From NCBI GenBank assembly GCA_029762625.1, contig JARVGI010000003.1, forward strand, positions 81,909 through 145,908: a stretch of 64,000 bases of DNA, in the 5' to 3' direction. The notes beneath the pieces are model-generated. The model did no database searches. It was not told the origin of the DNA and saw only the letters and a program-made list of their open reading frames with translations. A program made the position numbers and the translations under genes. This document shows positions 6,213 to 41,774 of the stretch, one piece after another (positions within the stretch are counted from its first letter, which is position 1; each line of letters begins with the position of its first letter). The DNA is from Methanomicrobiaceae archaeon. GTDB lineage: Archaea; Halobacteriota; Methanomicrobia; Methanomicrobiales; Methanomicrobiaceae.

Positions 6213-7112
6213 ATGGCTGAACCAACATCCCAACAATGCGACGGCAACTGTGCGAACTGCGCCTCGGCAAGCAGCTGTGATGACCCGCAGAACACCCAGA
6301 AAAAGACAGGACCGCCCGAGAGGGTGGAGATGGATGTCAGGCACGTGATCCTCGTCCTCTCCGGCAAGGGCGGGGTTGGCAAGACCACCGTGGCGGCAAA
6401 CCTCGCCATGATGCTCTCCAACCACGGCTTCAATACCGGGCTCGCCGATCTGGATATCACCGGCCCCAACATCCCCAAGATGATGGGCATCGAAGAGAAA
6501 CGACTGACCTCCTACGACGGGAAGAAGATCGAACCGGTCCGCATCACCGGGACGCTCGGGGTGGTCTCCATGGCCTTCCTCCTGCCCGAGAAGTCCACGC
6601 CGGTGATCTGGCGCGGCCCCATGAAGATGACGGCCATCCGCCAGTTCCTCGAGGACGTGAACTGGGGCGACCTCGACTACCTTGTCGTGGATCTCCCTCC
6701 CGGCACCGGTGACGAGGCGCTGACCATCGCCCAGCTCGCCCCCAACATCGACGGTGCGGTCGTCGTCACCACACCACAGGAAGTCGCAATCCTCGATTCG
6801 AGCAAGGCGGTCCGTTTTGTGCAGCAGATCGGCCTGAAGGTGCTCGGGATCATCGAGAACATGAGCGGTATGTTCTGCCCCCACTGCGGCGAGGAGATCG
6901 ACCTCTTCGGCGTCGGCGGCGGGGAAAAGGCAGCGGAGGAGCTCGGGGTGCCCTACCTCGGCCGTATCCCCATGGACCCCGCGATGCGAAAGGCTGGTGA
7001 CGAGGGACGCCCTTTCATCATCCGCAACCCCGATGCCGACCCGGACAACCCCACCTGGAAGGCGGTGGATGAAGTATTGGACAACCTCCTCACCGAGATC
7101 AAAGAGCAGTGA
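6213..7112 (+). CDS. Mrp/NBP35/ApbC-family Fe-S cluster carrier ATPase
   Basis: Deviant Walker A SGKGGVGKTT, a conserved CPHCG motif and an N-terminal Cys-rich stretch CDGNCANCASASSC. GGAG lies 8 nt before the ATG. Confidence 0.9.
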   Translation: MAEPTSQQCDGNCANCASASSCDDPQNTQKKTGPPERVEMDVRHVILVLSGKGGVGKTTVAANLAMMLSNHGFNTGLADLDITGPNIPKMMGIEEKRLTSYDGKKIEPVRITGTLGVVSMAFLLPEKSTPVIWRGPMKMTAIRQFLEDVNWGDLDYLVVDLPPGTGDEALTIAQLAPNIDGAVVVTTPQEVAILDSSKAVRFVQQIGLKVLGIIENMSGMFCPHCGEEIDLFGVGGGEKAAEELGVPYLGRIPMDPAMRKAGDEGRPFIIRNPDADPDNPTWKAVDEVLDNLLTEIKEQ

Positions 7113-7705: not shown

Positions 7706-9295
7706 ATGAATCTCAGAACACCGAATGCAAACGAAGCAGTGGGAACCTCGAACCGTTCCCGCGATGTGGCGCCTGTGTCCGGCATCTGCACACGCTGTGT
7801 GGACGGGTGCAAGGGAAACTGTGAAATCTGGCTGTCGTCGTTCCGCGGCCGCGAAGTGCTGTACCCCGGGCCGTTCGGCGAGGTTACCGCCGGCGCGGAC
7901 AAGAACTACCCGGTCGACTACTCGCATCTCAATATCCACGGCTACGCCGAGGGTGCACGCGGGCTTCCCGAGGGTGTGGAGATCGGCCCCGACACCGCCG
8001 TGTTTGAGGATGTCTCCACCGAGACGAGCTATGGCTGGGACCTCAAGGTGCCCATGCGCGTCCCCATCTTCACCGGTGCGCTCGGCTCCACCGAGATCGC
8101 CCGCGTCAACTGGGAACACTTCGCCATCGGTGCCGCCATCGCCGGGATCACCCTGGTCTGCGGTGAGAACGTCTGTGGCGTCGACCCCGCGCTGAAGCTC
8201 GGCAGCGACGGCAAGGTGTCCAGTTCGCCCGAGATGGACCGCCGTATCGAGACCTACCAGCGCTTCCACGAGGGCTACGGAGAGATCCTCGTCCAGTTGA
8301 ACGTGGAGGACACCCGTCTCGGCACCGCCGAGTACGTTTCCCACAAACACGAGCTCAACACCATCGAGCTCAAGTGGGGCCAGGGCGCCAAGTGTATCGG
8401 CGGCGAGATCAAGGTCAGTTCCCTCTCCCGCGCCACCGAGCTGAAGAACCGCGGCTACATCGTCCTGCCCGATCCCACCCGTCCCGACATCCAGAAGTCT
8501 TTCGAGGACGGGGCCATCAAGGAGTTCGAGCGCCACTCCCGACTCGGCTTCATCGACAAGGAAGCCTTCCTCGCGGAATGCGACCGCCTCCGTGATATCG
8601 GCTTCAAGCGCATCACCCTCAAGACCGGCGCCTACTCGGCAAAAGAGCTGGCAATGGCACTCCGCTGGTCGTCCGAGGCAAAGATCGACCTGCTCACCAT
8701 GGACGGCGCACCGGGCGGCACCGGCATGAGCCCCTGGCCGATGATGAACGAGTGGGGCGTGCCCACCTTCTACCTCCAGTCCATGGCCTACGAGTTTGCC
8801 GAAATCCTGACCAAAAAGGGCCTGCGGGTGCCCGACCTCGCCATCGCCGGCGGGTTCGCCGACGAGGCGAATGTGTTCAAGGCCCTCGCCATGGGTGCGC
8901 CCTACGTCAAGGCGGTCTGCATGGGCCGCGGGCTCATGATCCCGGGCATGGTCGGCAAGAACATCGCCAAATGGATCGAGAACGGCGAACTGCCCAAGAC
9001 CGTCTCCAAATACGGCACCATTCCTGCAGAGATCTTCGTCACCTACGAAGAGCTCATGGAAAAATACCAGGGCCGCTTCAACGAGATCCCGCTGGGCGCT
9101 GTCGGCATCTACACCTACGCGCAGCGCTTCAGGATCGGCCTGCAGCAGATCATGGCGGGCAGCAGGAATTTCAGCCTCTCGAGCGTCTCCCGCAAAGACC
9201 TGATGGCGCTCACCGAGGAGGCCGCAAAAATCTCCGGCATCCCCTACGTCATGGACTCCTACCGCAGCGAGGCGCTGGAGATCCTGGACGGCTGA
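7706..9295 (+). CDS. FMN-binding glutamate synthase family protein (stand-alone GltB FMN-domain paralog)
   Basis: 529 aa. N-terminal CTRCVDGCKGNC Cys motif. TIM-barrel FMN blocks IELKWGQGAKCIGGEIK, DLLTMDGAPGGTGMSP and AIAGGF...KALAMGAP. Confidence 0.8.
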   Translation: MNLRTPNANEAVGTSNRSRDVAPVSGICTRCVDGCKGNCEIWLSSFRGREVLYPGPFGEVTAGADKNYPVDYSHLNIHGYAEGARGLPEGVEIGPDTAVFEDVSTETSYGWDLKVPMRVPIFTGALGSTEIARVNWEHFAIGAAIAGITLVCGENVCGVDPALKLGSDGKVSSSPEMDRRIETYQRFHEGYGEILVQLNVEDTRLGTAEYVSHKHELNTIELKWGQGAKCIGGEIKVSSLSRATELKNRGYIVLPDPTRPDIQKSFEDGAIKEFERHSRLGFIDKEAFLAECDRLRDIGFKRITLKTGAYSAKELAMALRWSSEAKIDLLTMDGAPGGTGMSPWPMMNEWGVPTFYLQSMAYEFAEILTKKGLRVPDLAIAGGFADEANVFKALAMGAPYVKAVCMGRGLMIPGMVGKNIAKWIENGELPKTVSKYGTIPAEIFVTYEELMEKYQGRFNEIPLGAVGIYTYAQRFRIGLQQIMAGSRNFSLSSVSRKDLMALTEEAAKISGIPYVMDSYRSEALEILDG

Positions 9296-9312
9296 TCGCC
9301 TCCACACCATTC

Positions 9313-9319
9313 TTTTTTT
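9313..9319 (+). terminator. Oligo-T (T7) after the FMN-GltS-like gene
   Basis: attctttttttgcg located 18 nt after the stop at 9295 and 26 nt before the ygiQ-like ATG. Confidence 0.35.
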
Positions 9320-9344
9320 GCGCATCCGGCATACGCAGTATGAC

Positions 9345-11138
9345 ATGATCCGGGACGAGCGGCAGCGTTCATCGGCACCACCGGCGTTCCTGCCCACTAC
9401 GGCCGCCGAGATGGCGGCGCGGGGGTGGAATGCCTGCGATGTGGTCATCGCCACCCCGGACGCCTACGTCGACCACCCTTCCTTTGCCATGGCGCTGCTG
9501 GGCCGATTTCTCCAGCACCACGGCTACCGGGTGGGCATCCTCACCCAGCCCCGGTGGCGGGACCCGCAGTCGTTTCTCGAGCTGGGCGCACCCCGCATCG
9601 CCTTCGTGGTCTCGGGCGGCAATGCGGACTCCATGGTGCTCAACTATACCGCTTCCGGGAAGCCCCGGAAGGAGGACCAGTACTGCGAAGGGGGCAACCC
9701 GTTCTTTTCCCGGCCCGGCGAGGGCAAAAAGTACCGCATCCGCCCTGACCGGGTGGTCACCGTCTATGCCAGCCAGATAGGTTCGGTCTGCCGCGACCGT
9801 CCCCTGATCATCGGCGGCATCGAGGCGTCGCTGCGGCGGATCGCCCACTATGATGCCTGGACCGATACGGTGCGACGGTCGGTGCTCTTCGATGCCAAGG
9901 CCGATCTGCTCGTCTACGGGATGGGGGAGTACCCCCTGCTGGAGGCGGTCCGCGGTTTCGAGAAGGGGTTGTCCGCAGGGGAGATGGCGATCCCCTCCAC
10001 GGCGGTGGCAAGAAGCACCCTCGACGGTCTCGATGACCCGGTGGTGCTGCCATCGTTTGCGGACACAAAAGCGGACAAAGAAGCATTTGCAGAGGCCTTC
10101 TGCAAGTTCTCCCGAAACGGCGACCGGTGCGTGCTCGTCCAGCAGCAGGATTCCCGCTCCCTTGTCCAGTTCCCCCGCCGCACACTCTCGCAGGAGGAGC
10201 TCGATGCCGTCTACGACCTCGCATTCGCCCGGTCGCCCCACCCGCGGTTTCGGGATATCCCGGCGTTCCGCATGATTCGCGACTCGATCACCGCCCACCG
10301 CGGGTGCTTCGGCAGCTGCTCCTTCTGCGCCATCGCCGCCCACCAGGGGCCAGAAATCGTCTCAAGGAGCGAGGAATCAGTGCTGCGGGAGGTGGCGCGG
10401 GTGGTGGCCGCGCCCGGGTTCCGGGGGACCATCACCGATATCGGGGGCCCCTCGGCCAACATGTACGCCGCCACCTGCAAAACCGGTGGATGTGATGCGC
10501 CCGACTGCCTGCGGCAGGGCGAAGCCTGCCCCCATCTGGTGCCGGGGACGGAGGAGTACCTCCGCCTCCTCGATGCTGCTGCGGCGGTGGAGGGGGTGCG
10601 CAGGGTCTTTGTGACCTCGGGGCTGCGCTTCGACCCGGCACTTCTGGACGACGCCACCCTCGAGGCGCTCGTCGAACGGCATATCTCCGGGCAGCTGAAG
10701 GTGGCCCCCGAGTCGGGGAGCGACCGGGTGCTGCGGCTGATGCACAAGCCGCCGGTGGCGGTCTTCGAGGAGTTCCGCCGGCGGTTCGAGAAGTGCACCC
10801 GGCGGTCGGGGCGAAAGACCTGCCTCGTCCCCTACATCATCGTCGGCCACCCCGGCGAGGGCGAGGAGGAGCTTGAGGAGACCCGGCAGTTCCTGGATGC
10901 GCAGGGGCTCGCCGGGCGCCAGTTCCAGATCTTCACTCCCTCCCCCCTCACCCGGGCGACGGCGATGTACTACCTGGGATACGACCCCTGCACCGGCGAG
11001 GAGGTTGCAGTGGAAAAGCGGATGAAGGTGCTTGAAACCCGGAAACAGCGCCTGATAGAGAGGGCCCCCTCGCACTCGAAACGGCGCGGCCCGGCTACCT
11101 CCCGATCAGCCCGGGGAGATCGGCGATCGAATCGATGA
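9345..11138 (+). CDS. YgiQ-family radical SAM protein (UPF0313)
   Basis: The track ORF starts at TTG 9318; the first in-frame ATG is 9345. FLPTTAAEMAARGWNACDVVIATPDAYVDHPSF is the YgiQ N-domain. Radical SAM Cys triad CFGSCSFC. Confidence 0.8.
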   Translation: MIRDERQRSSAPPAFLPTTAAEMAARGWNACDVVIATPDAYVDHPSFAMALLGRFLQHHGYRVGILTQPRWRDPQSFLELGAPRIAFVVSGGNADSMVLNYTASGKPRKEDQYCEGGNPFFSRPGEGKKYRIRPDRVVTVYASQIGSVCRDRPLIIGGIEASLRRIAHYDAWTDTVRRSVLFDAKADLLVYGMGEYPLLEAVRGFEKGLSAGEMAIPSTAVARSTLDGLDDPVVLPSFADTKADKEAFAEAFCKFSRNGDRCVLVQQQDSRSLVQFPRRTLSQEELDAVYDLAFARSPHPRFRDIPAFRMIRDSITAHRGCFGSCSFCAIAAHQGPEIVSRSEESVLREVARVVAAPGFRGTITDIGGPSANMYAATCKTGGCDAPDCLRQGEACPHLVPGTEEYLRLLDAAAAVEGVRRVFVTSGLRFDPALLDDATLEALVERHISGQLKVAPESGSDRVLRLMHKPPVAVFEEFRRRFEKCTRRSGRKTCLVPYIIVGHPGEGEEELEETRQFLDAQGLAGRQFQIFTPSPLTRATAMYYLGYDPCTGEEVAVEKRMKVLETRKQRLIERAPSHSKRRGPATSRSARGDRRSNR

Positions 11139-11871
11139 TCGCGTACGGCCTCACCCCCGCCTCCTCGACCAGATCCTCCCGGTATTTCCCGGTACGGACC
11201 AGGACCCCCCGGATGCCGCATCCCTGCGCCCCGGCGATGTCGGTGTCGATGTCGTCGCCCACCATCAGGGTCCGTCCGGGTGCGGTTCCCAGCGCCTCCA
11301 ATGCCCATGCGAAGAAGGCGGGGGAGGGTTTGCCCACCAGCTCCGCCGTCGTTCCGGTCGCGTATTCGAGGGCGGCGACGAACGGCCCGGCCGAGAGGGA
11401 GAGCCCGTCGGCATCCCTCCAGTAGCGGTCCTTTTCCAGGGCGATGAGCGGGGCACCGTCAAGAATGCTCCGGAATGCCCGGTTGATCGCATGGTAGGTC
11501 ATCCGTTCCCCGGCATCGCCGACCACCACGGCATCGACGGTCTCGATCGCAGACAGAATGCCCGCCGCCTCGAAGTCCTGCCTAACCACGTCCAACACGA
11601 GGAGCATGCAGCGGGTGAGGGAGCGTTCGGCGAGGAGTGCCGCTGCCGCCACCGCGGGGGTGAAGATGTGCGCCTCGGGGATGGCAAGACCCATTGCCTC
11701 AAGCCGGCCCGCGATTGCTCTCCGCGGCTGCCGCGTCGTGTTGGAGATGCAGTGGAAGGGTAGCCCTTCCTCCCTCAGAAAGGCGATTGCGTCAATCGCA
11801 CCCTCGATGGGGCGGCCCCCCACCGAGAGGACGCCGTCGATGTCCAGCAGCACCCCTTGCGTATCGTCCAT
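11095..11871 (-). CDS. HAD-superfamily hydrolase, subfamily IIA (NagD/LHPP-like phosphatase)
   Basis: Start MDDTQGVLLDIDGVL (DxDG motif I) at 11871. ISNTT (motif II). GKP...MVGDDIDTDI (motifs III/IV). Confidence 0.75.
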   Translation of the reverse strand: MDDTQGVLLDIDGVLSVGGRPIEGAIDAIAFLREEGLPFHCISNTTRQPRRAIAGRLEAMGLAIPEAHIFTPAVAAAALLAERSLTRCMLLVLDVVRQDFEAAGILSAIETVDAVVVGDAGERMTYHAINRAFRSILDGAPLIALEKDRYWRDADGLSLSAGPFVAALEYATGTTAELVGKPSPAFFAWALEALGTAPGRTLMVGDDIDTDIAGAQGCGIRGVLVRTGKYREDLVEEAGVRPYAIIDSIADLPGLIGR

Positions 11872-11961
11872 CAGATCACTGCAATGTATCGTTTCTCTGC
11901 CCTTTATTCGTCGCCCCCTCCGCACGACCGCGGCCCTGCAGGCGGATACGGTAAACAGCGT

Positions 11962-12651
11962 TCATTCTCCCTCGCCGGAACATAACCCCGGCGTGGTGCA
12001 TGCGGCATGCACCGCGGTGAGGGCGGTGCGGGCATTCCTCACCACGTGCCGGTCCGGGTCATTCAGCGCGGTTCTGAGCGCTTCCCTCGCAAGCGGTCCC
12101 CCGATCCTGCCGAGCGCATGCGCAGCGCTTCGCCGCACACGGGGATCGGCATCGTTGAGCGCACCGACGAGGGGGCTCGCCGATCGCCGGTCCCCTACCC
12201 TCCCGAGGGTGCGTGCCGCATGCCTTCTCACCTCTCCCTCTTCATCCCGTAGCAGCAGGGCAAGCGGTTCTGCTGCCTCCCCCGCACGGATCCAGCCGAG
12301 CGCATCCGCCGCGGCGATGCGGATCTGCGGATCCGGATGATCGAGGTAATCGATCAGTGCATCGACGTCCGGTTCGGCATTGCAGGCGCAGAGCGCCCGG
12401 GCCGCCTCGGGGACGAACCAGGGGTGTCGGCGGATCGCCTCGTTGAGGGCCTCGATCGCACGCCGGTCCTTCATCTGCCCCATTCCGTGCCCGATGGCAT
12501 CGTGTATATGCCAGTTCTCATGTTCGGCGAGCCGGAGGAGTTCCAGCACAGTGCCGGGATCGTTGATCTCGCCGATGGCGGCCACGGCCCGGCTCCGGAC
12601 CTCCCAGTTGCGGTTCTTCAGGTCGCGAATCAGCATGCTCAGATCATCCAT
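11962..12651 (-). CDS. HEAT-repeat (PBS-lyase type) protein
   Basis: Repeated units ...D.D..VR..AA.ALG.IG..-A...L...L.D (e.g. DPDRHVVRNARTAL, DADPRVRRSAAHALGRIG, EEGEVRRHAARTLGRVG). The start overlaps the upstream PII-like gene by 13 nt. Confidence 0.7.
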   Translation of the reverse strand: MDDLSMLIRDLKNRNWEVRSRAVAAIGEINDPGTVLELLRLAEHENWHIHDAIGHGMGQMKDRRAIEALNEAIRRHPWFVPEAARALCACNAEPDVDALIDYLDHPDPQIRIAAADALGWIRAGEAAEPLALLLRDEEGEVRRHAARTLGRVGDRRSASPLVGALNDADPRVRRSAAHALGRIGGPLAREALRTALNDPDRHVVRNARTALTAVHAACTTPGLCSGEGE

Positions 12652-12968
12652 ACGGCAATCCTCCCCACCTGTTCCATCGCTTCCGGGAAGACGAGGATCT
12701 TGCCATCGCCGTAGTTACCTGTGCAGGCGGCCGCCCGTATGGTCGCAACCGCCTCGCTCACCTCGTCATCGTGAACGGTCGTTTCGATCGTTACCCCGGC
12801 AATCCGGTCGCCCTCGGTTCTCCTGCCCCGGAACGGGGGGAGCCGTACCCTTCCGGGTGGGGTGTTGTGCCCCTCCGCGGATGCCATGGCATGAAATCCC
12901 TTCGCTGCAAGGGCCGTCCTGACCGGATCAAGTTTTTCTGGACGAATGCTTGCCTGGATCTTCTTCAT
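12639..12968 (-). CDS. PII (GlnB/GlnK)-like protein with strongly diverged T-loop (copy 1)
   Basis: MKKIQASIRPEKLDPVRTALAAKGF... and ...TGNYGDGKILVFPEA align with the intact glnK at 15322..15648. The T-loop segment reads SAEGHNTPPGRVRLPPFRGRRTEGDR instead of RGRGAQKGITLRGGK. Confidence 0.6.
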   Translation of the reverse strand: MKKIQASIRPEKLDPVRTALAAKGFHAMASAEGHNTPPGRVRLPPFRGRRTEGDRIAGVTIETTVHDDEVSEAVATIRAAACTGNYGDGKILVFPEAMEQVGRIAVWMI

Positions 12969-13409
12969 CGGTATCACGGTATCCGTTGAGGGACTCCCCC
13001 TGCTGAGCGAGATCGAGTCCCACGTATTCCTCTTCCTCGCTGAACCGCAGCCCCATCACGCGATCCACCACCTTTGCGACGACCAGGGTGACCGCCACGA
13101 AGACCAGCTGGAAGACCATGAAGAGCAGATCAGGGATGCCATCCCCGTCCATGCACCCACCCCGGAAAGCCACACGTAATCGAGACCGCCGATCAGCCCT
13201 CCTACATCAGGCCCAAAGGCCGGGCTGTAGCCGAAGGTAACCCATTGGATGGTGACCACGGAGAAAGCGATGAACGACAGGGCGAGCATCGATATCAGGT
13301 TTTTTCTCCGAACCAGGCCGCCGTAGAACAGGCCCACCCCCGGCGTCATGAGCATGACCATTGCCGTACAAACGAGGAGGAACGCCGTATCCCCTGTGTC
13401 AAGTGCCAT
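12969..13409 (-). pseudogene. amt: Ammonium transporter (amt) remnant: frameshift plus about 260-codon internal deletion plus lost stop
   Basis: From ATG 13409: [79 protein letters not shown] is collinear with the intact Amt (15660..16856). There is a 2-nt insertion near 13152-13160 (48 vs 46 nt between shared flanks). After FMVFQL the sequence jumps to the Amt C-terminus [29 protein letters not shown]. Confidence 0.85.
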
Positions 13410-13480
13410 TGTATCCCATCTCCACGAGGCGGACTTCCCGGCGCGAGGATTGGTGCGTGGGAACCGCCGCGTTGATAGAA

Positions 13481-13512
13481 GGAAGTTATCTTCTATCATT
13501 ATATTATATTTG
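13481..13512 (-). promoter_or_regulatory. Degenerate NrpR-type operator (GGAAGTTATCTTCT) next to a TATA-like ATTATATTATATT, upstream of the amt remnant
   Basis: Same arrangement as the intact amt promoter at 16880..16906, with one mismatch to GGAA-N6-TTCC. It lies 72 nt from the remnant ATG. Confidence 0.3.
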
Positions 13513-36153: not shown

Positions 36154-36227
36154 CGGGCCCGGAGGGATTTGAACCCCCGACCATCTGGTTAAAAGCCAGA
36201 CGCTCTGCCTAACTGAGCTACAGGCCC
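36154..36227 (-). tRNA. tRNA-Lys (anticodon UUU)
   Basis: Manual cloverleaf: acceptor GGGCCTG/CGGGCCC, D arm GCTC-AGTTAGGCA-GAGC, anticodon arm TCTGG-CTTTTAA-CCAGA, T arm GGGGG-TTCAAAT-CCCTC, discriminator G. 74 nt, no encoded CCA. Confidence 0.9.
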
Positions 36228-36531
36228 CGCGGATCGTGCAAAGTAGCATTATTACAATGTGGTATTACTACATAAATTTACTGATGGTATATAAGGGATG
36301 GGGGGGCCGGAAGGCTCCCCCGCGATACCCCCTGCGCATTCAAGGGTAAAATCGTGCGCAATGTTTAAAAATCGCCGGCGGGTGCTGGTGGCTTTATCTG
36401 TGTGCGGAACGCATGTGGTGAGAATTGATCCGGAACATGCCCGGTCGTGTCGCATGGTGCGCCACCAGGCTGAACCTGGGAGGATGCGGATCGGAAGATG
36501 CAGCCGCGCTCCTGTATATCGACAAGAAATG

Positions 36532-36536
36532 AAAAA
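36532..36536 (-). terminator. Oligo-T tract (CTCTTTTTCATTTCTTG on minus strand) about 45 nt after the receiver-protein stop
   Basis: Plus strand gaaatgaaaaagagag at about 36526-36541. Confidence 0.35.
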
Positions 36537-36579
36537 GAGAGTGGATTCCGAGCTGTTGCCGGGAGGCTGTCCTGCTACA

Positions 36580-37200
36580 TTATTTGCCGAATTCCTGCTG
36601 GAGCTGCTCGAGCCGCTCCTCCTGGAATTTGATGCTCATTGCCATGCTCTTGATCGCGTGGGAGATATTTTCTCCCACTTTGACCCTGGAATCGTTGATG
36701 TTGTAGGTTGATTCGAGGATTTTCAGCAAACGTCTGGAGACATCCACGCTCTTGGAGAGACGCTCGTACTCCTCGATGAGGCGTTTTTCTGTACCGCCCT
36801 CTTCAGCCTTCGAGATCTCCTCCTTGATCCTTTCTCTCCGTTTCAGCACGTACTCGATGGCCTCGTAGAGCTGGCGGTGCGTGGTAGGCTTCATGATATA
36901 GTCTTCCAGGTACGCACCATACTCCTGCGCCTCGTCAGGAGTGAGCTGCTTGGCGGTGAGCATCATGACGGGGATATCTTTTATCTCCGGGTTCGTCTTG
37001 ATGCGTTCCAGCGTCTCCCAGCCGTCCATCGGCTCCATCATGATGTCTAGCAGGATGAGATCAGGGGTAACATCCTTCAGCACTTCAAGCGCTTCTTCAC
37101 CAGAATATGCTGCAATTGGCCTGAATCCTCCCCGCTCCAGCATTGCGACGAACACGTCGACAATCATGGGGCTATCGTCAACAACCAAAATCGTATACAT
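36580..37200 (-). CDS. CheY-like response-regulator receiver protein with C-terminal coiled-coil extension
   Basis: MYTILVVDDSP...DLILLDIMMEPMDG...MLTAK...IMKP (DD, phospho-acceptor D, T and K positions). Followed by about 85 aa rich in E/K/R/L heptads. The ATG overlaps the TAA of the upstream Roadblock gene (TAATG). Confidence 0.85.
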   Translation of the reverse strand: MYTILVVDDSPMIVDVFVAMLERGGFRPIAAYSGEEALEVLKDVTPDLILLDIMMEPMDGWETLERIKTNPEIKDIPVMMLTAKQLTPDEAQEYGAYLEDYIMKPTTHRQLYEAIEYVLKRRERIKEEISKAEEGGTEKRLIEEYERLSKSVDVSRRLLKILESTYNINDSRVKVGENISHAIKSMAMSIKFQEERLEQLQQEFGK

Positions 37201-37574
37201 TACAATTCCTCTCCAACTCTCCGTCCGATATTCGCCAGCTGAACTTTGAGCGCATTGACATCCGCAGACCGATCAATGATGGCGGTGATGAGCGCGGTTT
37301 CACCCGCACTGGATATTGAGAGCGTTCCATCTTCTGATTCGCATAGAACCAATGAAGGGTTTTTCATGTGCAGGATGCTTGCCGCGGCATCGGTGGATGC
37401 GGCGACGGTTGCACTCATTGCGGCAAGTACCGAGCCCGGTACATTCTCGCCGAGGGTTGATCCCAGCATACGCCCCTCCCGAGAGATCAGCGCACAGCCG
37501 ACCACACCGTCGAGCGCCATGACAGCATCAATGAGGCCCTGTATTTTCTCTTTCAGCGGACCGTGTTTAGGCAT
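37200..37574 (-). CDS. Roadblock/LC7 (MglB-like) domain protein
   Basis: 124 aa. LIDAVMALDGVVGCALISREGRMLGSTL...AAMSATVAASTDAAASIL...LSISSAGETALITAIIDRSADV follows the Robl/LC7 pattern. Confidence 0.7.
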   Translation of the reverse strand: MPKHGPLKEKIQGLIDAVMALDGVVGCALISREGRMLGSTLGENVPGSVLAAMSATVAASTDAAASILHMKNPSLVLCESEDGTLSISSAGETALITAIIDRSADVNALKVQLANIGRRVGEEL

Positions 37575-37753
37575 CAGTGAATTACCTCAAGATTTCAACA
37601 GTGATCATCTCTAGTTTCCATATGAACATATAAATGTGTAATGTTTTGTGAATTGGCAGACTGTCCGTTTCCCGTGGTGCGAATCCCCCGGACACGTGGG
37701 ATAGGCTGCATATCAACAAAGTTATAACGTAACAGCAATACTTTTTAATAACA

Positions 37754-38779
37754 ATGCAACTCCCTCGGGGGACATTCCATTCCCTTAAAAAAAGTATCTC
37801 AATTGCCTCCCTTCTCGGGGAATTGACAGACTCATCGTTCACCGGGTACAGCATGATCACCCTCGACGATGCCCCGGCGTTTCTGGTATTCGAGGCAGGA
37901 GAGTGTATCCTCGCCCATTGCGGAAATGACGAGGGCCTGACTGCTCGCGAGCGGTTGAAGGGGATGGGCGAGGTCGATGTCAGTGCAGAGCTCTATACAC
38001 TCACCCCCAAGCAGATCCAGCTGACGAGGGAGTTCAACCCGTCCATGGCGATGAAGGGTGCGCCAGCGCCAATCCCGGCGCCGGCAACGTCCGGTCGGGC
38101 CCCTGCCGGAACATCGCAGGGGCGGACGAAACCAAAGAGCAGGGGTGAGGGAGAGACGGTGCGAACCGATGCACGCGTTCCTCCGCTCCAGCTTCCGCGA
38201 GGCAGATTCCACTCCATCAAACGCGCCATTACCCTCTCTGATCTGATCGATGAGATGCGGGAGACCCATTTTTCGGGATACTGTAACCTGACCATGAACC
38301 AGGAGTCCATCACGTTCGTGGCAGAGGATGGCATCTGCCTGCTCGTCGACTTCTATCCCGAACGGGGGAGTGCAGCCCTCCAGATCATGCAGACGAGTCT
38401 CGAGGACGAGATCACCGCGGAGCTCTACACGCTGACGCCCGCCCAGATGCAGCTGGCACTGGAATTCAACAGGGATTACCGTGTGAGCATCAGCACGAAA
38501 TCGCCGGTTATCAAGATGATGCCCCAGAAAATCCCGGAGAGGGCGGTCCGCACAGGGGGTGACCGGAGCAAGCCGCATCCACCGGGCGAAAATGCTGACG
38601 GTGTGGATGATTTCGAGGAGCAGATACTGGCCCTCGAGAGCATGGACCTGGATACGATGACCGAGCAGTTCAAGGACAATTTCAAGGACGTGCTCACCCG
38701 GCTCGATCTCGAGTACCTGCTCGACGAGAGGGACAAGGATTCAGACGAGCGCCGTAAGAGTGGTGAGATCGATGGGTGA
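37754..38779 (+). CDS. Protein with two tandem PATAN/DUF4388-like repeats, a P/A/G/R-rich linker and an acidic C-terminal tail
   Basis: Internal duplication. Repeat 1 (residues 1-100): QLPRGTFHSLKKSISIASLLGEL...FTGY...AELYTLTPKQIQLTREFN. Repeat 2 (about 155-255): QLPRGRFHSIKRAITLSDLIDEM...FSGY...AELYTLTPAQMQLALEFN. Confidence 0.55.
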   Translation: MQLPRGTFHSLKKSISIASLLGELTDSSFTGYSMITLDDAPAFLVFEAGECILAHCGNDEGLTARERLKGMGEVDVSAELYTLTPKQIQLTREFNPSMAMKGAPAPIPAPATSGRAPAGTSQGRTKPKSRGEGETVRTDARVPPLQLPRGRFHSIKRAITLSDLIDEMRETHFSGYCNLTMNQESITFVAEDGICLLVDFYPERGSAALQIMQTSLEDEITAELYTLTPAQMQLALEFNRDYRVSISTKSPVIKMMPQKIPERAVRTGGDRSKPHPPGENADGVDDFEEQILALESMDLDTMTEQFKDNFKDVLTRLDLEYLLDERDKDSDERRKSGEIDG

Positions 38780-39272
38780 GCCCGATCTCTTCATTCTCCT
38801 CTTCGTCCTCGTCCTCTTCATGATACAGGTTGTTCTTGGCATCTACCTCCTGCGCATTTACCGCCTCCTCGAAAAAGAAGAGGGCCGGCCCATACGGTCG
38901 TTCCGGTTCATGCCTGCGGCTCGCACCGTTTCCGGTGCGAAATCGGACGGGGATGTGATCCATGGACGGGAAACAATTGCAGAGAGTCTGCAGGCGCTCT
39001 GCGGGAAATATTCCCTGACTTCATGTACCATCGCCACGCGCGACGGGCTGGTCGTGGCCTCGTCCCTTGAGGATGCCGACGAAGATGCGGCCCAGTACAG
39101 CTATCTCTACGTCAACGGCATCGCCCCCCGCGATCCAACCATCCGCCTCTTCGGTCTCTCCTACCACGGCGGCGGGGTGGTGGGGATCGTCAGGGGGCCC
39201 GAAGAGGCATTTTCTCGCTCGCAAAAGGCCCTTGAAAACGAATTGCAGACCGTCCTTGACTGGTGGCTCTGA
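38772..39272 (+). CDS. Single-pass membrane protein with Roadblock/LC7-like C-terminal domain
   Basis: ATG 38772 overlaps the preceding stop by 8 nt. TM LFILLFVLVLFMIQVVLGIYLL. C-terminal LQALCGKYSLTSCTIATRDGLVVASSLEDADEDAAQYSYL...GVVGIV resembles Robl_LC7. Confidence 0.45.
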   Translation: MGEPDLFILLFVLVLFMIQVVLGIYLLRIYRLLEKEEGRPIRSFRFMPAARTVSGAKSDGDVIHGRETIAESLQALCGKYSLTSCTIATRDGLVVASSLEDADEDAAQYSYLYVNGIAPRDPTIRLFGLSYHGGGVVGIVRGPEEAFSRSQKALENELQTVLDWWL

Positions 39273-39530
39273 AAAATCACTCCTCGTATCCGCGGGGAAG
39301 GCCGCACTTTACACCCGTTGGCGGCGGGACCTGCGATGCATCCGAAATGCAGGCGGATGGAGCCTCGAATCACTGGTTTTCGCCGGGCCGTTCGATATAT
39401 ATTTCTTATTGAATAAAATACTGTTATTTTTTAAATCCACGCATGCATGCTCATATTTTGTCAATAAAAAACCGGATCATTAAAATATATTTACACGTAA
39501 CATTTCGTTGGTTTTAAAAGAGAGATACTT

Positions 39531-40322
39531 ATGGTAAGGGCATACACGATCGCGTCAGGGAAAGGTGGCACGGGGAAGACCACCTTATCGGTAAATCTTG
39601 GCTCGATGCTTGCATATTTTGGCAAAGAGACCTATATTATGGATGCCGATGTTGGGATGGCCAATCTGGGAATCGTTCTCGGACTGGAGAATGTGCCGGT
39701 CACCCTCCACGAAGTGCTTGCCGGCAATGCGGCGGTGTCCGATGCAATCTATGAAGGACCGTTTGGCGTCAAGGTGGTCCCGAGCGGCATCTCTCTCAAG
39801 GGATTCCAGAACGCCAATCCCGACCGTCTTCGCGATGTCATGCGGGAGCTCGTGGGAAGGTGCGATTTCCTCATCATCGATGCGCCCGCAGGGATATCGA
39901 GAGACGGCGTAATCCCGCTGGCCATCGCCGATGAGGTCATCTTGGTGGTCAACCCCGAGCTCTCCTCCATCGTGGACGCACTGAAGACCAAGATCCTGAC
40001 CGAGCTCGTGGGGGGACACGTGTCCGGTGCGATCCTGAATCGGGCGACCATGGAGAACACCGAGGTATCGAGGGAGAAGATGGAGAAAGTGCTCGGGGTG
40101 AAGGTGATCGGGATCGTCCCCGAAGATGCGAACGTCCGCCGCTCTTCCGCCCACAAGACGCCAATTGTGGTGAAATACCCAAATTCGGACGCTTCAAGGG
40201 CGATTAAAGGAATCGCAGCCCAGATTGCCGGGACAGAGTATAAAGACGAGGGCAGTGTCGAAGCGGCCCGGGAGGGATTCCTGGACAGGCTCGCCCGTTC
40301 ACTGTTCAGGAGCTCCAAATGA
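39531..40322 (+). CDS. minD: Archaeal MinD-type (MinD/ParA family) ATPase
   Basis: Deviant Walker A SGKGGTGKTT, Walker B FLIIDAPAG, and a C-terminal amphipathic helix GFLDRLARSLFRS. Preceded by a 130-bp AT-rich promoter-like tract. Confidence 0.85.
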   Translation: MVRAYTIASGKGGTGKTTLSVNLGSMLAYFGKETYIMDADVGMANLGIVLGLENVPVTLHEVLAGNAAVSDAIYEGPFGVKVVPSGISLKGFQNANPDRLRDVMRELVGRCDFLIIDAPAGISRDGVIPLAIADEVILVVNPELSSIVDALKTKILTELVGGHVSGAILNRATMENTEVSREKMEKVLGVKVIGIVPEDANVRRSSAHKTPIVVKYPNSDASRAIKGIAAQIAGTEYKDEGSVEAAREGFLDRLARSLFRSSK

Positions 40323-40516
40323 CCCTTGAAGGATATCTGCTCATATTTTTTGGTGTGATAATCCTCGTCCTGCTCTTTCTCATCGAGCTCATGCAACGCC
40401 GTGTGGAACAGCTGCTCGATGAGGTTGAGGGGTTGAGGGGGCGTATGAACGTCACGTCCACCGAAATTGAAGCGCTCACGAAAAACGTCGAAGAATTCAA
40501 GAAATTGAAAATATAA
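40319..40516 (+). CDS. 65-aa TM plus coiled-coil protein translationally coupled to minD
   Basis: ATGA overlap with the minD stop. LLIFFGVIILVLLFLI is the TM segment, followed by heptad-like RRVEQLLDEVEGLRGRMNVTSTEIEALTKNVEEFKKLKI. Confidence 0.5.
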   Translation: MTLEGYLLIFFGVIILVLLFLIELMQRRVEQLLDEVEGLRGRMNVTSTEIEALTKNVEEFKKLKI

Positions 40517-40788
40517 TGGCGGCATAGTGCCTGCAGCGATCGTTTGCGTGGCCTTGAGAGTATCCTCCTGTTTTTCCCGGTACCATGCATGATTTCTCTC
40601 TCCGGTGCATGCCAGTGGATGCACCCCGGGTCGCCTGCCCGGGGGATGCCCAGTCTCGTGCCCCCCTTTTCGACCCGGGACGATCCGGTAGTGCTTTCCC
40701 GCACCACGGGCGGTTCTGGGAGAGTGAACCTCAAATTTACAGGCCGAATGGGAAACTAGATATAATCACAGAATGAAGTTGTATGGGC

Positions 40789-40863
40789 GGGGCCATAGGG
40801 TAGCCTGGACCATCCTAGGAGACTGGGGGTCTTCTGACCTGCGTTCGAATCGCAGTGGCCCCA
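40789..40863 (+). tRNA. tRNA-Pro (anticodon GGG)
   Basis: Manual fold: acceptor GGGGCCA/TGGCCCC, anticodon arm GGAGA-CTGGGGG-TCTTC, T arm CTGCG-TTCGAAT-CGCAG, discriminator A. A T6 tract at 40871-40876 follows. A TATA-like gatataatc lies about 25 nt upstream. Confidence 0.85.
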
Positions 40864-40910
40864 TTTCTGATTTTTTCCATTCTACCCAACCGCCGAGGAG
40901 ATGCTTCGTT

Positions 40911-41774
40911 ATGCGTTTTACCGATGGTTGCACCGACTGTATCCTTTCCCGGGTGGAATACGAGTGCCGTCTGGCCCACGCCGATGAGGAGACGATTGCC
41001 CGGGCGCGGGATGCCTGTGCAGCGCTGCTTGCGTCCATCCGGCATGACGACGTCCCCTCGCCGGTGATCGCAAGCCGGGTCCATCGCCGTGCCTACCGGA
41101 TCGCACGAAGCCGGGATCCCTACGCCGAACTCAAGTGCGAAAACAACCGCACAGCCCTTGAGGTCTGCGCCCTCGTGGAGAATCGGCTCGTATCGTTTCG
41201 TGACCGCTGCCTTGCGGCGGTTATCGCCAATACCCTTGATTACGGGTCGCTTGCTCACCAGGTGACTGATAATTTCGTTACGTTCTTCGCGCGGGAGTTT
41301 GCCTCAGGCTTCACCATCGATCACACCGCCGCCATCGAGGATTTGAGCGAGCGGGTGGTCTATCTTTCCGACAACTGCGGGGAGATCGTCTTCGACCGGC
41401 TGCTGGTGCGGGCCCTCAAGGAGCGGGGATCGCACGTGACTCTCGCCGTGCGGGGAGCGCCCATCCTCAACGATGCCACCGTTGCAGACGCGCGCGAGCT
41501 CGGACTGGATTCGATCGTCGACACCCTGACGGTCAACCGGGAGGGGGTCGCGGAGCTGGGCCTCAACCCTGCCGAAATGCCCGACCGGCTCTGTGAGGCG
41601 ATCGAGCGGGCAACGCTTGTCATCGCCAAGGGGATGGCAAACTACGAGTCGCTCTCCGATTTTGTCGATATGCCCCCGGTCGCCTATCTCATGTCGGTAA
41701 AATGCGAGCCCATCGGTCGGCATGTGGGGGCGCCGGTGGGTTCAAAAATCGCTATGCTTTCGGAGCACCGGTAA
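40911..41774 (+). CDS. DUF89 (ARMT1-like damage-control phosphatase) family protein
   Basis: The track ORF 40773 overlaps tRNA-Pro, so the real start is ATG 40911 (MRFTDGCTDCILSRV...). Blocks RDPYAELK, YLSDNCGEIVFD and IAKGMANYESL are typical of DUF89. Confidence 0.7.
   Translation: MRFTDGCTDCILSRVEYECRLAHADEETIARARDACAALLASIRHDDVPSPVIASRVHRRAYRIARSRDPYAELKCENNRTALEVCALVENRLVSFRDRCLAAVIANTLDYGSLAHQVTDNFVTFFAREFASGFTIDHTAAIEDLSERVVYLSDNCGEIVFDRLLVRALKERGSHVTLAVRGAPILNDATVADARELGLDSIVDTLTVNREGVAELGLNPAEMPDRLCEAIERATLVIAKGMANYESLSDFVDMPPVAYLMSVKCEPIGRHVGAPVGSKIAMLSEHR

Follow-up and report, generated by a model that had tools for sequence, protein, structure and literature searches.

A MinD-linked gene module with PATAN-like and Roadblock proteins is conserved across Methanomicrobiales and may act on type IV pili

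Introduction

Positions 36,580 to 40,516 of a 64,000-nucleotide stretch of a Methanomicrobiaceae archaeon metagenome-assembled genome (contig JARVGI010000003.1; the whole stretch is called the window below) carry six small adjacent genes, among them genes for Roadblock-type, PATAN-like and receiver proteins and for a MinD ATPase. In bacteria, MglB-type Roadblock proteins are GTPase-activating proteins of the small GTPase MglA, and genes for PATAN proteins are in some cases found close to mglA (PMC4316618); the Roadblock superfamily has been predicted to regulate nucleoside triphosphatases (NTPases), a view that a passage of PMC4316618 attributes to Koonin and Aravind (2000). The question raised by this locus is what such proteins do beside minD. 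The initial annotation of this DNA described them as a positioning-type module lacking a GTPase, in which the Roadblock, PATAN and receiver set might feed into MinD instead.

Comparison with related genomes placed minD beside the PATAN-like gene at every locus in which this could be assessed, found no small-GTPase-like gene nearby, and placed most relatives inside a type IV pilus locus. These observations suggest that the genes belong to an order-wide, MinD-centred module of Methanomicrobiales for membrane positioning or regulation, most likely one that controls the placement or number of a type IV pilus-like machine; we put the chances that this reading is right at about even. The six genes, all present in the window with the coordinates and strands first assigned to them, are as follows.

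36580..37200, minus strand: response regulator with a receiver domain (residues 4-116) and a MetOD2 output domain (residues 121-205), assigned with Pfam
37200..37574, minus strand: soluble Roadblock/LC7 protein of 124 residues, assigned with Pfam; TAATG-coupled to the receiver gene
37754..38779, plus strand: cytoplasmic protein of 341 residues with two PATAN-like domains, disordered proline-rich linkers and a conserved C-terminal helical region (self-repeat, AlphaFold2)
38772..39272, plus strand: predicted single-pass membrane protein of 166 residues with a cytoplasmic Roadblock-fold domain (AlphaFold2 and Foldseek)
39531..40322, plus strand: archaeal MinD ATPase of 263 residues, assigned with NCBIfam
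40319..40516, plus strand: protein of 65 residues with a predicted N-terminal transmembrane helix (hydrophobic segment 7-25) and a charged helical tail; ATGA-coupled to minD

Conservation of the gene order

Related loci were collected by scanning GTDB, one genome per species, for the N-terminal motif of the PATAN-like family with a six-sequence alignment, and the best 80 of 116 loci were kept. All but two of the 80 have Methanomicrobiales-type names, the exceptions being labelled 'Methanobacteriota archaeon' and 'Thermoplasmata archaeon'. Open reading frames (ORFs) were called in all loci and searched with hidden Markov models iterated from the six window proteins; the counts in this section are numbers of loci over those of the 80 that could be assessed.

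The gene minD lay on the same strand as the PATAN-like gene, no more than 1.2 kb downstream of it, at 73 of 73 loci. A gene for a membrane Roadblock-like protein stood between the two at 64 of 73, and minD was followed by the 65-residue protein gene at 35 of 72, the latter gene being absent from Methanoregula-type loci. On the opposite side, a Roadblock gene diverged from the PATAN-like gene at a distance of up to 700 bp (66/76), and two such divergent Roadblock genes were present at 55 of 72 loci. A REC-MetOD2 gene diverged from the PATAN-like gene at 14 of 72 loci; at 16 loci a receiver gene was instead convergent and downstream of minD, and encoded a REC-PAS protein where this was checked.

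Close relatives share the whole neighbourhood, which proves little, and it is the distant loci that are informative. Three genomic contexts were found. In context A (the window and 20 of 87 loci) the module lies between rpoH and an ARMT1-like gene, together with a REC-MetOD2 gene and usually a Roadblock gene of 124-139 codons. In context B it lies inside a type IV pilus locus. In context C, found in Methanoculleus, minD and the Roadblock pair are kept apart by an operon for ferredoxin and NiFe-hydrogenase. Conservation of the gene order in relatives had been set as a check by the initial annotation, and the order was kept across all three contexts. Methanoculleus sp. 7T has a single-repeat homologue of the PATAN-like protein in a different context, followed by the homologous membrane protein, minD and a gene for a 64-residue protein. 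On a neighbour-joining tree of MinD, the loci of context A fell into several separate clades, so that the rpoH context is not one clade, and PsiE and other flanking genes were present or absent without disturbing the module. Inherited synteny is therefore not enough to explain why the plus-strand core stays together.

The Methanoculleus insert follows minD, or the 64-residue protein gene where that is present. At four loci (L006, positions 10402-13498; L007; L008; L011) it comprises genes for ferredoxin, a 187-residue protein and the small and large subunits of NiFe-hydrogenase, placed before the Roadblock pair.

Association with type IV pilus genes

The surroundings of most relatives, which the initial annotation did not cover, point to a likely cargo. 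A gene for a T2SSE ATPase with PilB3-like ends lay no more than 3 kb upstream of the module at 48 of 62 assessable loci, and two T2SSF genes and a peptidase A24 gene with Arc_PepC_II occurred at the same loci. The order in context B is T2SSF, T2SSF, T2SSE, a Roadblock protein of 215-265 residues and a Roadblock protein of 115 residues, then the divergent genes for the PATAN-like protein, the membrane Roadblock protein and MinD; downstream of minD come a V4R protein, an uncharacterised protein and an archaeal type II prepilin peptidase.

Several further genes recur in this context. A double-V4R protein (about 370 residues) and a conserved protein of 200-330 residues, here called c17, are encoded between minD and the prepilin peptidase gene at about 45 loci, some 1-4 kb downstream of minD (context-B loci in the range L015-L087). 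The N-terminus of c17 faintly resembles the PATAN-like domain, a weak match with an hhalign probability of 16%. P-loop ORFs of about 480 codons and about 627-650 codons recur at the edges of context-B loci.

A general link of MinD and Roadblock proteins to archaeal pili has been known since 2016 from the work of Makarova, Koonin and Albers (PMC4858521). In the relevant passages and tables of that paper, no regulator linked to archaeal pilus systems is more abundant than the FleN/MinD family arCOG00589, whose members are frequently encoded alongside small, unrelated proteins that are intracellular or in the membrane; the small membrane or coiled-coil families arCOG05039, 05040 and 07447 are tabled as its associates; the Roadblock family arCOG02603 is frequent in pilus loci; and in Archaeoglobus MinD is followed by a gene for a 61-residue protein. 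The same tables place the clade-2 T2SSE of Methanoregula boonei (gi 154151446) five gi numbers before its MinD (gi 154151451), a spacing that fits the architecture found here. The initial annotation knew of no characterised archaeal system of such composition. This still applies to the PATAN-like protein, the anchored Roadblock protein and the module as such, of which the literature searched gave no description; the broader connection of MinD and Roadblock proteins with pili, by contrast, was on record.

The component proteins

The MinD protein is of the archaeal type. It matched the NCBIfam model TIGR01969 (minD_arch) at E = 1.1e-98, with 329.4 bits against a cut-off of 201.75, and across 79 orthologues conservation is at least 95% for its deviant Walker A motif GKGGTGKT (residues 10-17) and its DAD and IIDAPAG motifs. 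Its C-terminus carries the following element.

40275..40310, plus strand: C-terminal amphipathic helix of MinD, GFLDRLARSLFR, a predicted membrane-targeting sequence

For the segment FLDRLARSLFR of this C-terminus the hydrophobic moment came to 0.95, and the C-termini of the 79 orthologues repeatedly show the pattern F-[ILV]-x-R-[FL]-x-[KR]-x-[LI]-F-[RK]. Judged by these motifs, the protein looks active and membrane-binding, in line with the initial description of an archaeal MinD with a C-terminal amphipathic helix. A second, distant ORF of the MinD/ParA superfamily (6213-7112, 299 residues, with GKGGVGKT at residue 51) lies elsewhere in the window, outside the module, and scores just 62 bits on the module's MinD model. 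The conserved residues of the 65-residue protein coupled to minD include R27, R28, Q31, E35, G41 and R42, and its tail is basic and charged.

The 166-residue membrane protein had no Pfam or NCBIfam match at E values up to 1, and did not reach the Robl_LC7 threshold. Its AlphaFold2 model (mean predicted local distance difference test score, pLDDT, 79) contains a helix at residues 3-37, a disordered linker and a domain of a-b-b-a-b-b-a topology at pLDDT of about 85-90. When the model was searched against the PDB with Foldseek, the 50 best matches all belonged to the Roadblock superfamily, among them p14/MP1, LAMTOR proteins, HBXIP, MglB, Rag C-terminal domains, and bacterial and Asgard Roadblock proteins. 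The probabilities of these matches were mostly 0.9-1.0 (range 0.66-1.00), the E values ran from 5e-3 to 8e-2 with none below 0.005, and the target-normalised TM-scores were mostly 0.4-0.54. The model thus supports a Roadblock-like domain at the level of the fold, as had been proposed from the sequence, and the positional orthologues of the protein align with it. A single N-terminal segment of strong hydrophobicity (Kyte-Doolittle 19-residue mean 3.13) is present in each of the two predicted membrane proteins of the module.

The 341-residue protein contains an internal repeat with 36% identity over 121 columns (E = 5e-25). Its parts are these.

37754..38044, plus strand: PATAN-like repeat 1 (residues 1-97), beginning with the invariant MQLPRG (alignment; strands and helices of the model from E7-16 to H85-94)
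38186..38476, plus strand: PATAN-like repeat 2 (residues 145-241; self-repeat, alignment, AlphaFold2)
38609..38743, plus strand: conserved C-terminal helical region (residues 286-330, ...ESMDL..M...FKDNFKDVL.RLDLEYLL; alignment; helices at pLDDT of about 77)

AlphaFold2 modelled the two domains at pLDDT of about 96, with the order b-a-b-b-b-a-b-a, and the linkers below 50. The second repeat and the tail are the counterpart of the single-repeat proteins of about 200-250 residues found in other Methanomicrobiales, and the C-terminal helical region is kept in both tandem- and single-repeat forms; it is a candidate partner-binding peptide. In the Methanoculleus frigidifontis locus (L011), two separate tandem PATAN-like genes (9125-9850 and 10001-10606) lie upstream of the membrane Roadblock gene and minD, and this pair is a possible intermediate between the single-repeat form and the fused tandem-repeat one.

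The initial annotation had called the two repeats PATAN/DUF4388-like. The repeat is firm and the PATAN identity is a remote relationship. The window protein had no Pfam match and did not reach the DUF4388 (PF14332) gathering threshold of 25 bits; among 56 family members, 18 gave sub-threshold DUF4388 matches (best E = 0.002), and every other Pfam family matched at most one member. A profile search with the family returned at least 150 matches, all those listed having E values below 1e-28, and 280 representatives of the family were counted among 1.84 billion proteins. Searching PDB sequences with a profile of the protein gave no match, and a Foldseek search of its model against PDB and BFVD gave nothing significant, with only low-TM matches to sliding clamps and similar folds; neither search yielded a structure usable as a PATAN reference. 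The domain is accordingly called PATAN-like, as a remote relative and not a demonstrated member. A distant member, P0257, scored 24.1 bits against the DUF4388 cut-off of 25 and was tried as a bridge to that family; a search seeded with it gave 26 relatives, none with a precomputed DUF4388 match, and its group consists of stand-alone paralogues whose archaeal loci lack minD, so that it provides no bridge.

In the Roadblock proteins of 215-265 residues from the pilus context, the N-terminal domain is a homologue of the PATAN-like one (hhalign probability 96.4%, E = 1.4e-9), so that the two domain types recur together, both fused and adjacent. A PATAN-like domain is also N-terminal in P0267 (481 residues) and P0253 (299 residues), which carry Fic/DOC or TIR domains, combinations that hint at a role in signalling or defence when the domain occurs apart from the MinD module.

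For the minus-strand pair, Pfam recognised Response_reg (PF00072; E = 4.4e-24, 85.2 bits) and MetOD2 (PF18548; E = 6.4e-28, 97 bits) in ORF 36580..37200, both above threshold, and the phospho-acceptor residues DD8-9, D52, T82 and K104 are present. The CheY-like receiver first proposed is thereby upheld, and its supposed coiled-coil tail is instead the MetOD2 domain. MetOD2 has been described as a module of four predicted helices that may bind nucleic acids and that is confined to Methanocellales and Methanomicrobiales (Galperin 2018, PMC5847659), and the window regulator matches that description of REC-MetOD2 proteins in architecture and taxonomic range. The Roadblock/LC7 call for 37200..37574 also held, with Robl_LC7 (PF03259) at E = 4e-08 and 33.3 bits against a gathering cut-off of 23. 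In one rpoH-context subclade of seven loci (L033, L035, L051, L055, L057, L068 and L069) the REC-MetOD2 gene adjoins the PATAN-like gene with no Roadblock ORF in the gap of 300-500 bp, from which loss of the soluble Roadblock gene can be read there.

Proposed function and alternatives

In the module as we picture it, ATP-bound MinD dimers would attach to the membrane by means of the C-terminal amphipathic helix. The PATAN-like protein, whose gene lies immediately upstream, would serve as a cytoplasmic adaptor whose folded domain or domains are tied by disordered linkers to the conserved C-terminal helix. The membrane-anchored Roadblock protein would give the system a stationary partner in the membrane and might pair with the soluble Roadblock protein; the 65-residue membrane protein could be an accessory partner or anchor. 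Two-component input might come from the phosphorylatable REC-MetOD2 regulator. The output would most likely be control over the siting or the number of type IV pilus-like machines, given that most relatives are found within a pilus locus.

Several points weigh against this proposal. No pilus gene (T2SSE, T2SSF or prepilin peptidase) was found in the 64-kb window. The REC-MetOD2 gene and the window-type Roadblock subtype occur only in the rpoH context, so that inherited synteny could account for part of their link to MinD. At 9 of 73 loci there is no membrane Roadblock gene, and about half lack the 65-residue protein gene, which makes neither essential to the core, and deletion of the small gene downstream of minD2 in Haloferax gave no phenotype (PMC11588486). 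The PATAN assignment stays below the Pfam threshold. The evidence is comparative throughout, and gene linkage is the basis for every protein-protein contact, direction of signalling and cargo suggested here, including the action of the Roadblock, PATAN-like and receiver proteins on MinD.

A bolder mechanism can be put forward tentatively, and is rather unlikely to be correct. In Methanomicrobiales the ancient Roadblock/PATAN regulatory pair would have exchanged a small GTPase for an ATPase of the MinD/ParA type as its target, and the anchored Roadblock protein (perhaps paired with the soluble one) and the C-terminal helix of the PATAN-like protein would recruit MinD or stimulate its ATPase. 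The result in archaea would be a MinE-independent MinD cycle under two-component control that determines how many type IV pili there are or where they stand or, in lineages for which a complete Dip system is reported to be lacking, where the cell divides.

If the Roadblock and PATAN-like proteins instead serve a small GTPase encoded elsewhere (MglA-like, Arf-like or other), MinD would be a parallel, co-located component. The bacterial precedents of MglB and of PATAN genes near mglA speak for such an arrangement, as does the scope of the search for GTPases, which took in about 20 kb per locus and 64 kb of the window genome. Within that scope, no ORF with a P-loop GxxxxGK[ST] and an [NT]KxD motif, with or without DxxG, was found in 87 related loci or in the 64-kb window, whereas 390 of 449 MglA genes lie no more than four genes from an mglB (PMC4316618). 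The only recurrent P-loop proteins adjoining the module were MinD and the pilus ATPase, and the invariant neighbour is MinD. The module can therefore still be called GTPase-less, and linkage to a canonical MglA-like GTPase in place of minD, which the initial annotation had named as evidence against itself, was seen at none of the 87 loci. A remote GTPase client is thus improbable.

We judge it similarly improbable that the module serves Min-like positioning of the division site, or control of cell shape, instead of pili. MinD is the division-site ATPase of bacteria, the window copy is far from any pilus gene, and Haloferax MinD2 affects cell shape (PMC11588486). Dip has moreover been reported as absent from Methanogenium and incomplete in Methanoregula (PMC13228585), and both carry the module. 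Against this, no MinC, MinE, FtsZ or SepF gene was linked to the module at any locus, pilus genes adjoin it at 48 of 62, and the Haloferax MinD proteins are reported to have no division role (PMC11588486).

Cyanobacterial PATAN-REC regulators act on, or bind, the pilus motor PilB. The PATAN-like and Roadblock proteins might by analogy regulate the pilus assembly ATPase T2SSE directly, with MinD merely co-localised, and in the pilus context the Roadblock pair does adjoin the T2SSE gene directly. The PATAN-like gene nevertheless keeps its operon-like arrangement with minD even at a distance from any T2SSE gene, as in the window, the other rpoH-context loci and Methanoculleus, and we judge direct regulation of T2SSE with MinD left aside to be improbable.

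That the six genes are two or three unrelated neighbouring units, as the divergent promoter region, the 258-bp spacer and the restriction of the window-subtype REC and Roadblock pair to one synteny block might suggest, is very unlikely and for the plus-strand core already largely refuted, given the PATAN-like-MinD linkage at 73 of 73 loci across three contexts, the Roadblock genes flanking it at 66 of 76, and a module that stays while PsiE-type flanking genes come and go.

Gene boundaries and neighbouring genes

Homologues of matching length exist in other genomes for all six products, which indicates that the six ORFs are genes and not chance ORFs. Two of the window proteins are 100% identical to the public entries P0001 and P0121. 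The public annotation of P0001, which corresponds to the tandem PATAN-like protein, begins 23 codons downstream and gives 318 residues, omitting 37754-37822; since all homologues begin with MQLPRG and the second repeat has the same motif, the start at 37754 is the better one.

The three gene overlaps and the AT-rich spacer noted initially were read directly from the sequence. TAATG at 37200 on the minus strand has one base common to the Roadblock stop and the REC start; the TGA of the tandem-protein gene (38777-38779) and the ATG of the membrane-protein gene (38772) define an overlap of 8 nucleotides; and minD and the 65-residue protein gene overlap in ATGA (40319-40322). Two intergenic regions remain.

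37575..37753, no strand: divergent intergenic region, 179 bp, 39% GC
39273..39530, no strand: spacer before minD, 258 bp, 42% GC (window 61.5% GC)

The first is presumed to hold the promoters of both divergent units, and TATA-like stretches were seen in it by eye only. The second is a possible internal promoter region for minD; in most related loci the corresponding spacer is about 40-100 bp, much shorter than in the window.

Upstream of the module, a tRNA-Lys(UUU) gene lies at 36154-36227. A gene for a PsiE-family membrane protein stands between rpoH and the receiver gene in most relatives (L001-L005); no trace of PsiE was found by tblastn in the window (36228-36579) or in the closest species relative, L024, which points to local gene loss that left the module intact. 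Downstream, an ORF of 333 codons at 40773-41774 overlaps a tRNA-Pro(GGG) gene (40789-40863), and the true ARMT1-like (PF01937) gene probably begins near 40911 and encodes 287 residues, as in relatives.

Relation to known systems

To our knowledge, archaeal MinD proteins have no known partner that would drive them or read them out, and archaea have no MinE. The module names four or five candidate MinD partners that are kept with one MinD subfamily across a whole order, and offers a candidate regulator for the almost unstudied pili of methanogens, in an order, Methanomicrobiales, that is hard to manipulate genetically. Should Roadblock-fold proteins indeed regulate a ParA/MinD ATPase, a fold known chiefly from GTPase regulators would extend to a second class of NTPase, and some of the 'orphan' MglB-like proteins, of which 328 had been counted and none characterised as of 2014 (PMC4316618), would gain a role.

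Dip, a divisome-positioning system composed of a GTPase, a DUF2073 protein and a Zn-ribbon protein (PMC13228585), was considered as a known counterpart and shares no component with the module.

The MglA/MglB switch of Myxococcus and Thermus has a Roadblock-fold regulator of a P-loop NTPase, with PATAN and receiver accessories, and controls polar type IV pili. The module differs from it in that neither the window nor any related locus encodes an MglA-type GTPase, the linked NTPase is of the MinD/ParA type and one Roadblock protein is predicted to be membrane-anchored. The bacterial MinCDE and FlhF/FlhG systems share with it a MinD-family ATPase with a deviant Walker A motif and a C-terminal amphipathic helix, and in MinCDE a gene for a small partner, minE, is coupled to minD in a manner comparable to the 65-residue protein gene. 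That protein has a predicted true transmembrane helix and no similarity to MinE, and no Pfam match to MinC, MinE or FlhF was found among the six window proteins.

PATAN (DUF4388) proteins such as the cyanobacterial PatA and PixG have a domain of about 100 residues, as here, and the association or fusion of PATAN with Roadblock and its association with REC (Makarova 2006, as cited in a passage of PMC4316618) are also met with here. PatA carries PATAN and REC on one protein, whereas here they are on separate proteins. The present family further differs in its MQLPRG start, its conserved C-terminal helix, the lack of an alpha-helical insertion in the model and its sub-threshold scores.

Among archaeal systems, Haloferax volcanii MinD4 likewise has a C-terminal membrane-targeting helix, and it positions the archaellum and chemosensory arrays; it depends on that membrane-targeting sequence and apparently takes its cue from a patterning system yet to be identified (bioRxiv 10.1101/2020.04.03.021790). 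Haloferax MinD2 has a small conserved downstream gene, HVO_0596, which is by position the counterpart of the 65-residue protein gene. For neither have Roadblock, PATAN-like or REC partners been reported, and the cargo there is the archaellum and chemotaxis arrays.

Also close are the archaeal FleN/MinD pilus systems, which in the passages of PMC4858521 bearing on them have the same ATPase family in pilus loci with small membrane or coiled-coil associates and, separately, Roadblock associates. Those passages give no partner roles and were not found to describe a PATAN-like protein, an anchored Roadblock protein or a fixed gene order, and the window copy differs further in being detached from pilus genes. 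The components and their broad association with pili are thus already known; new here are the absence of a nearby GTPase, the MQLPRG family, the anchored Roadblock protein and the fixed set of partners that accompanies MinD.

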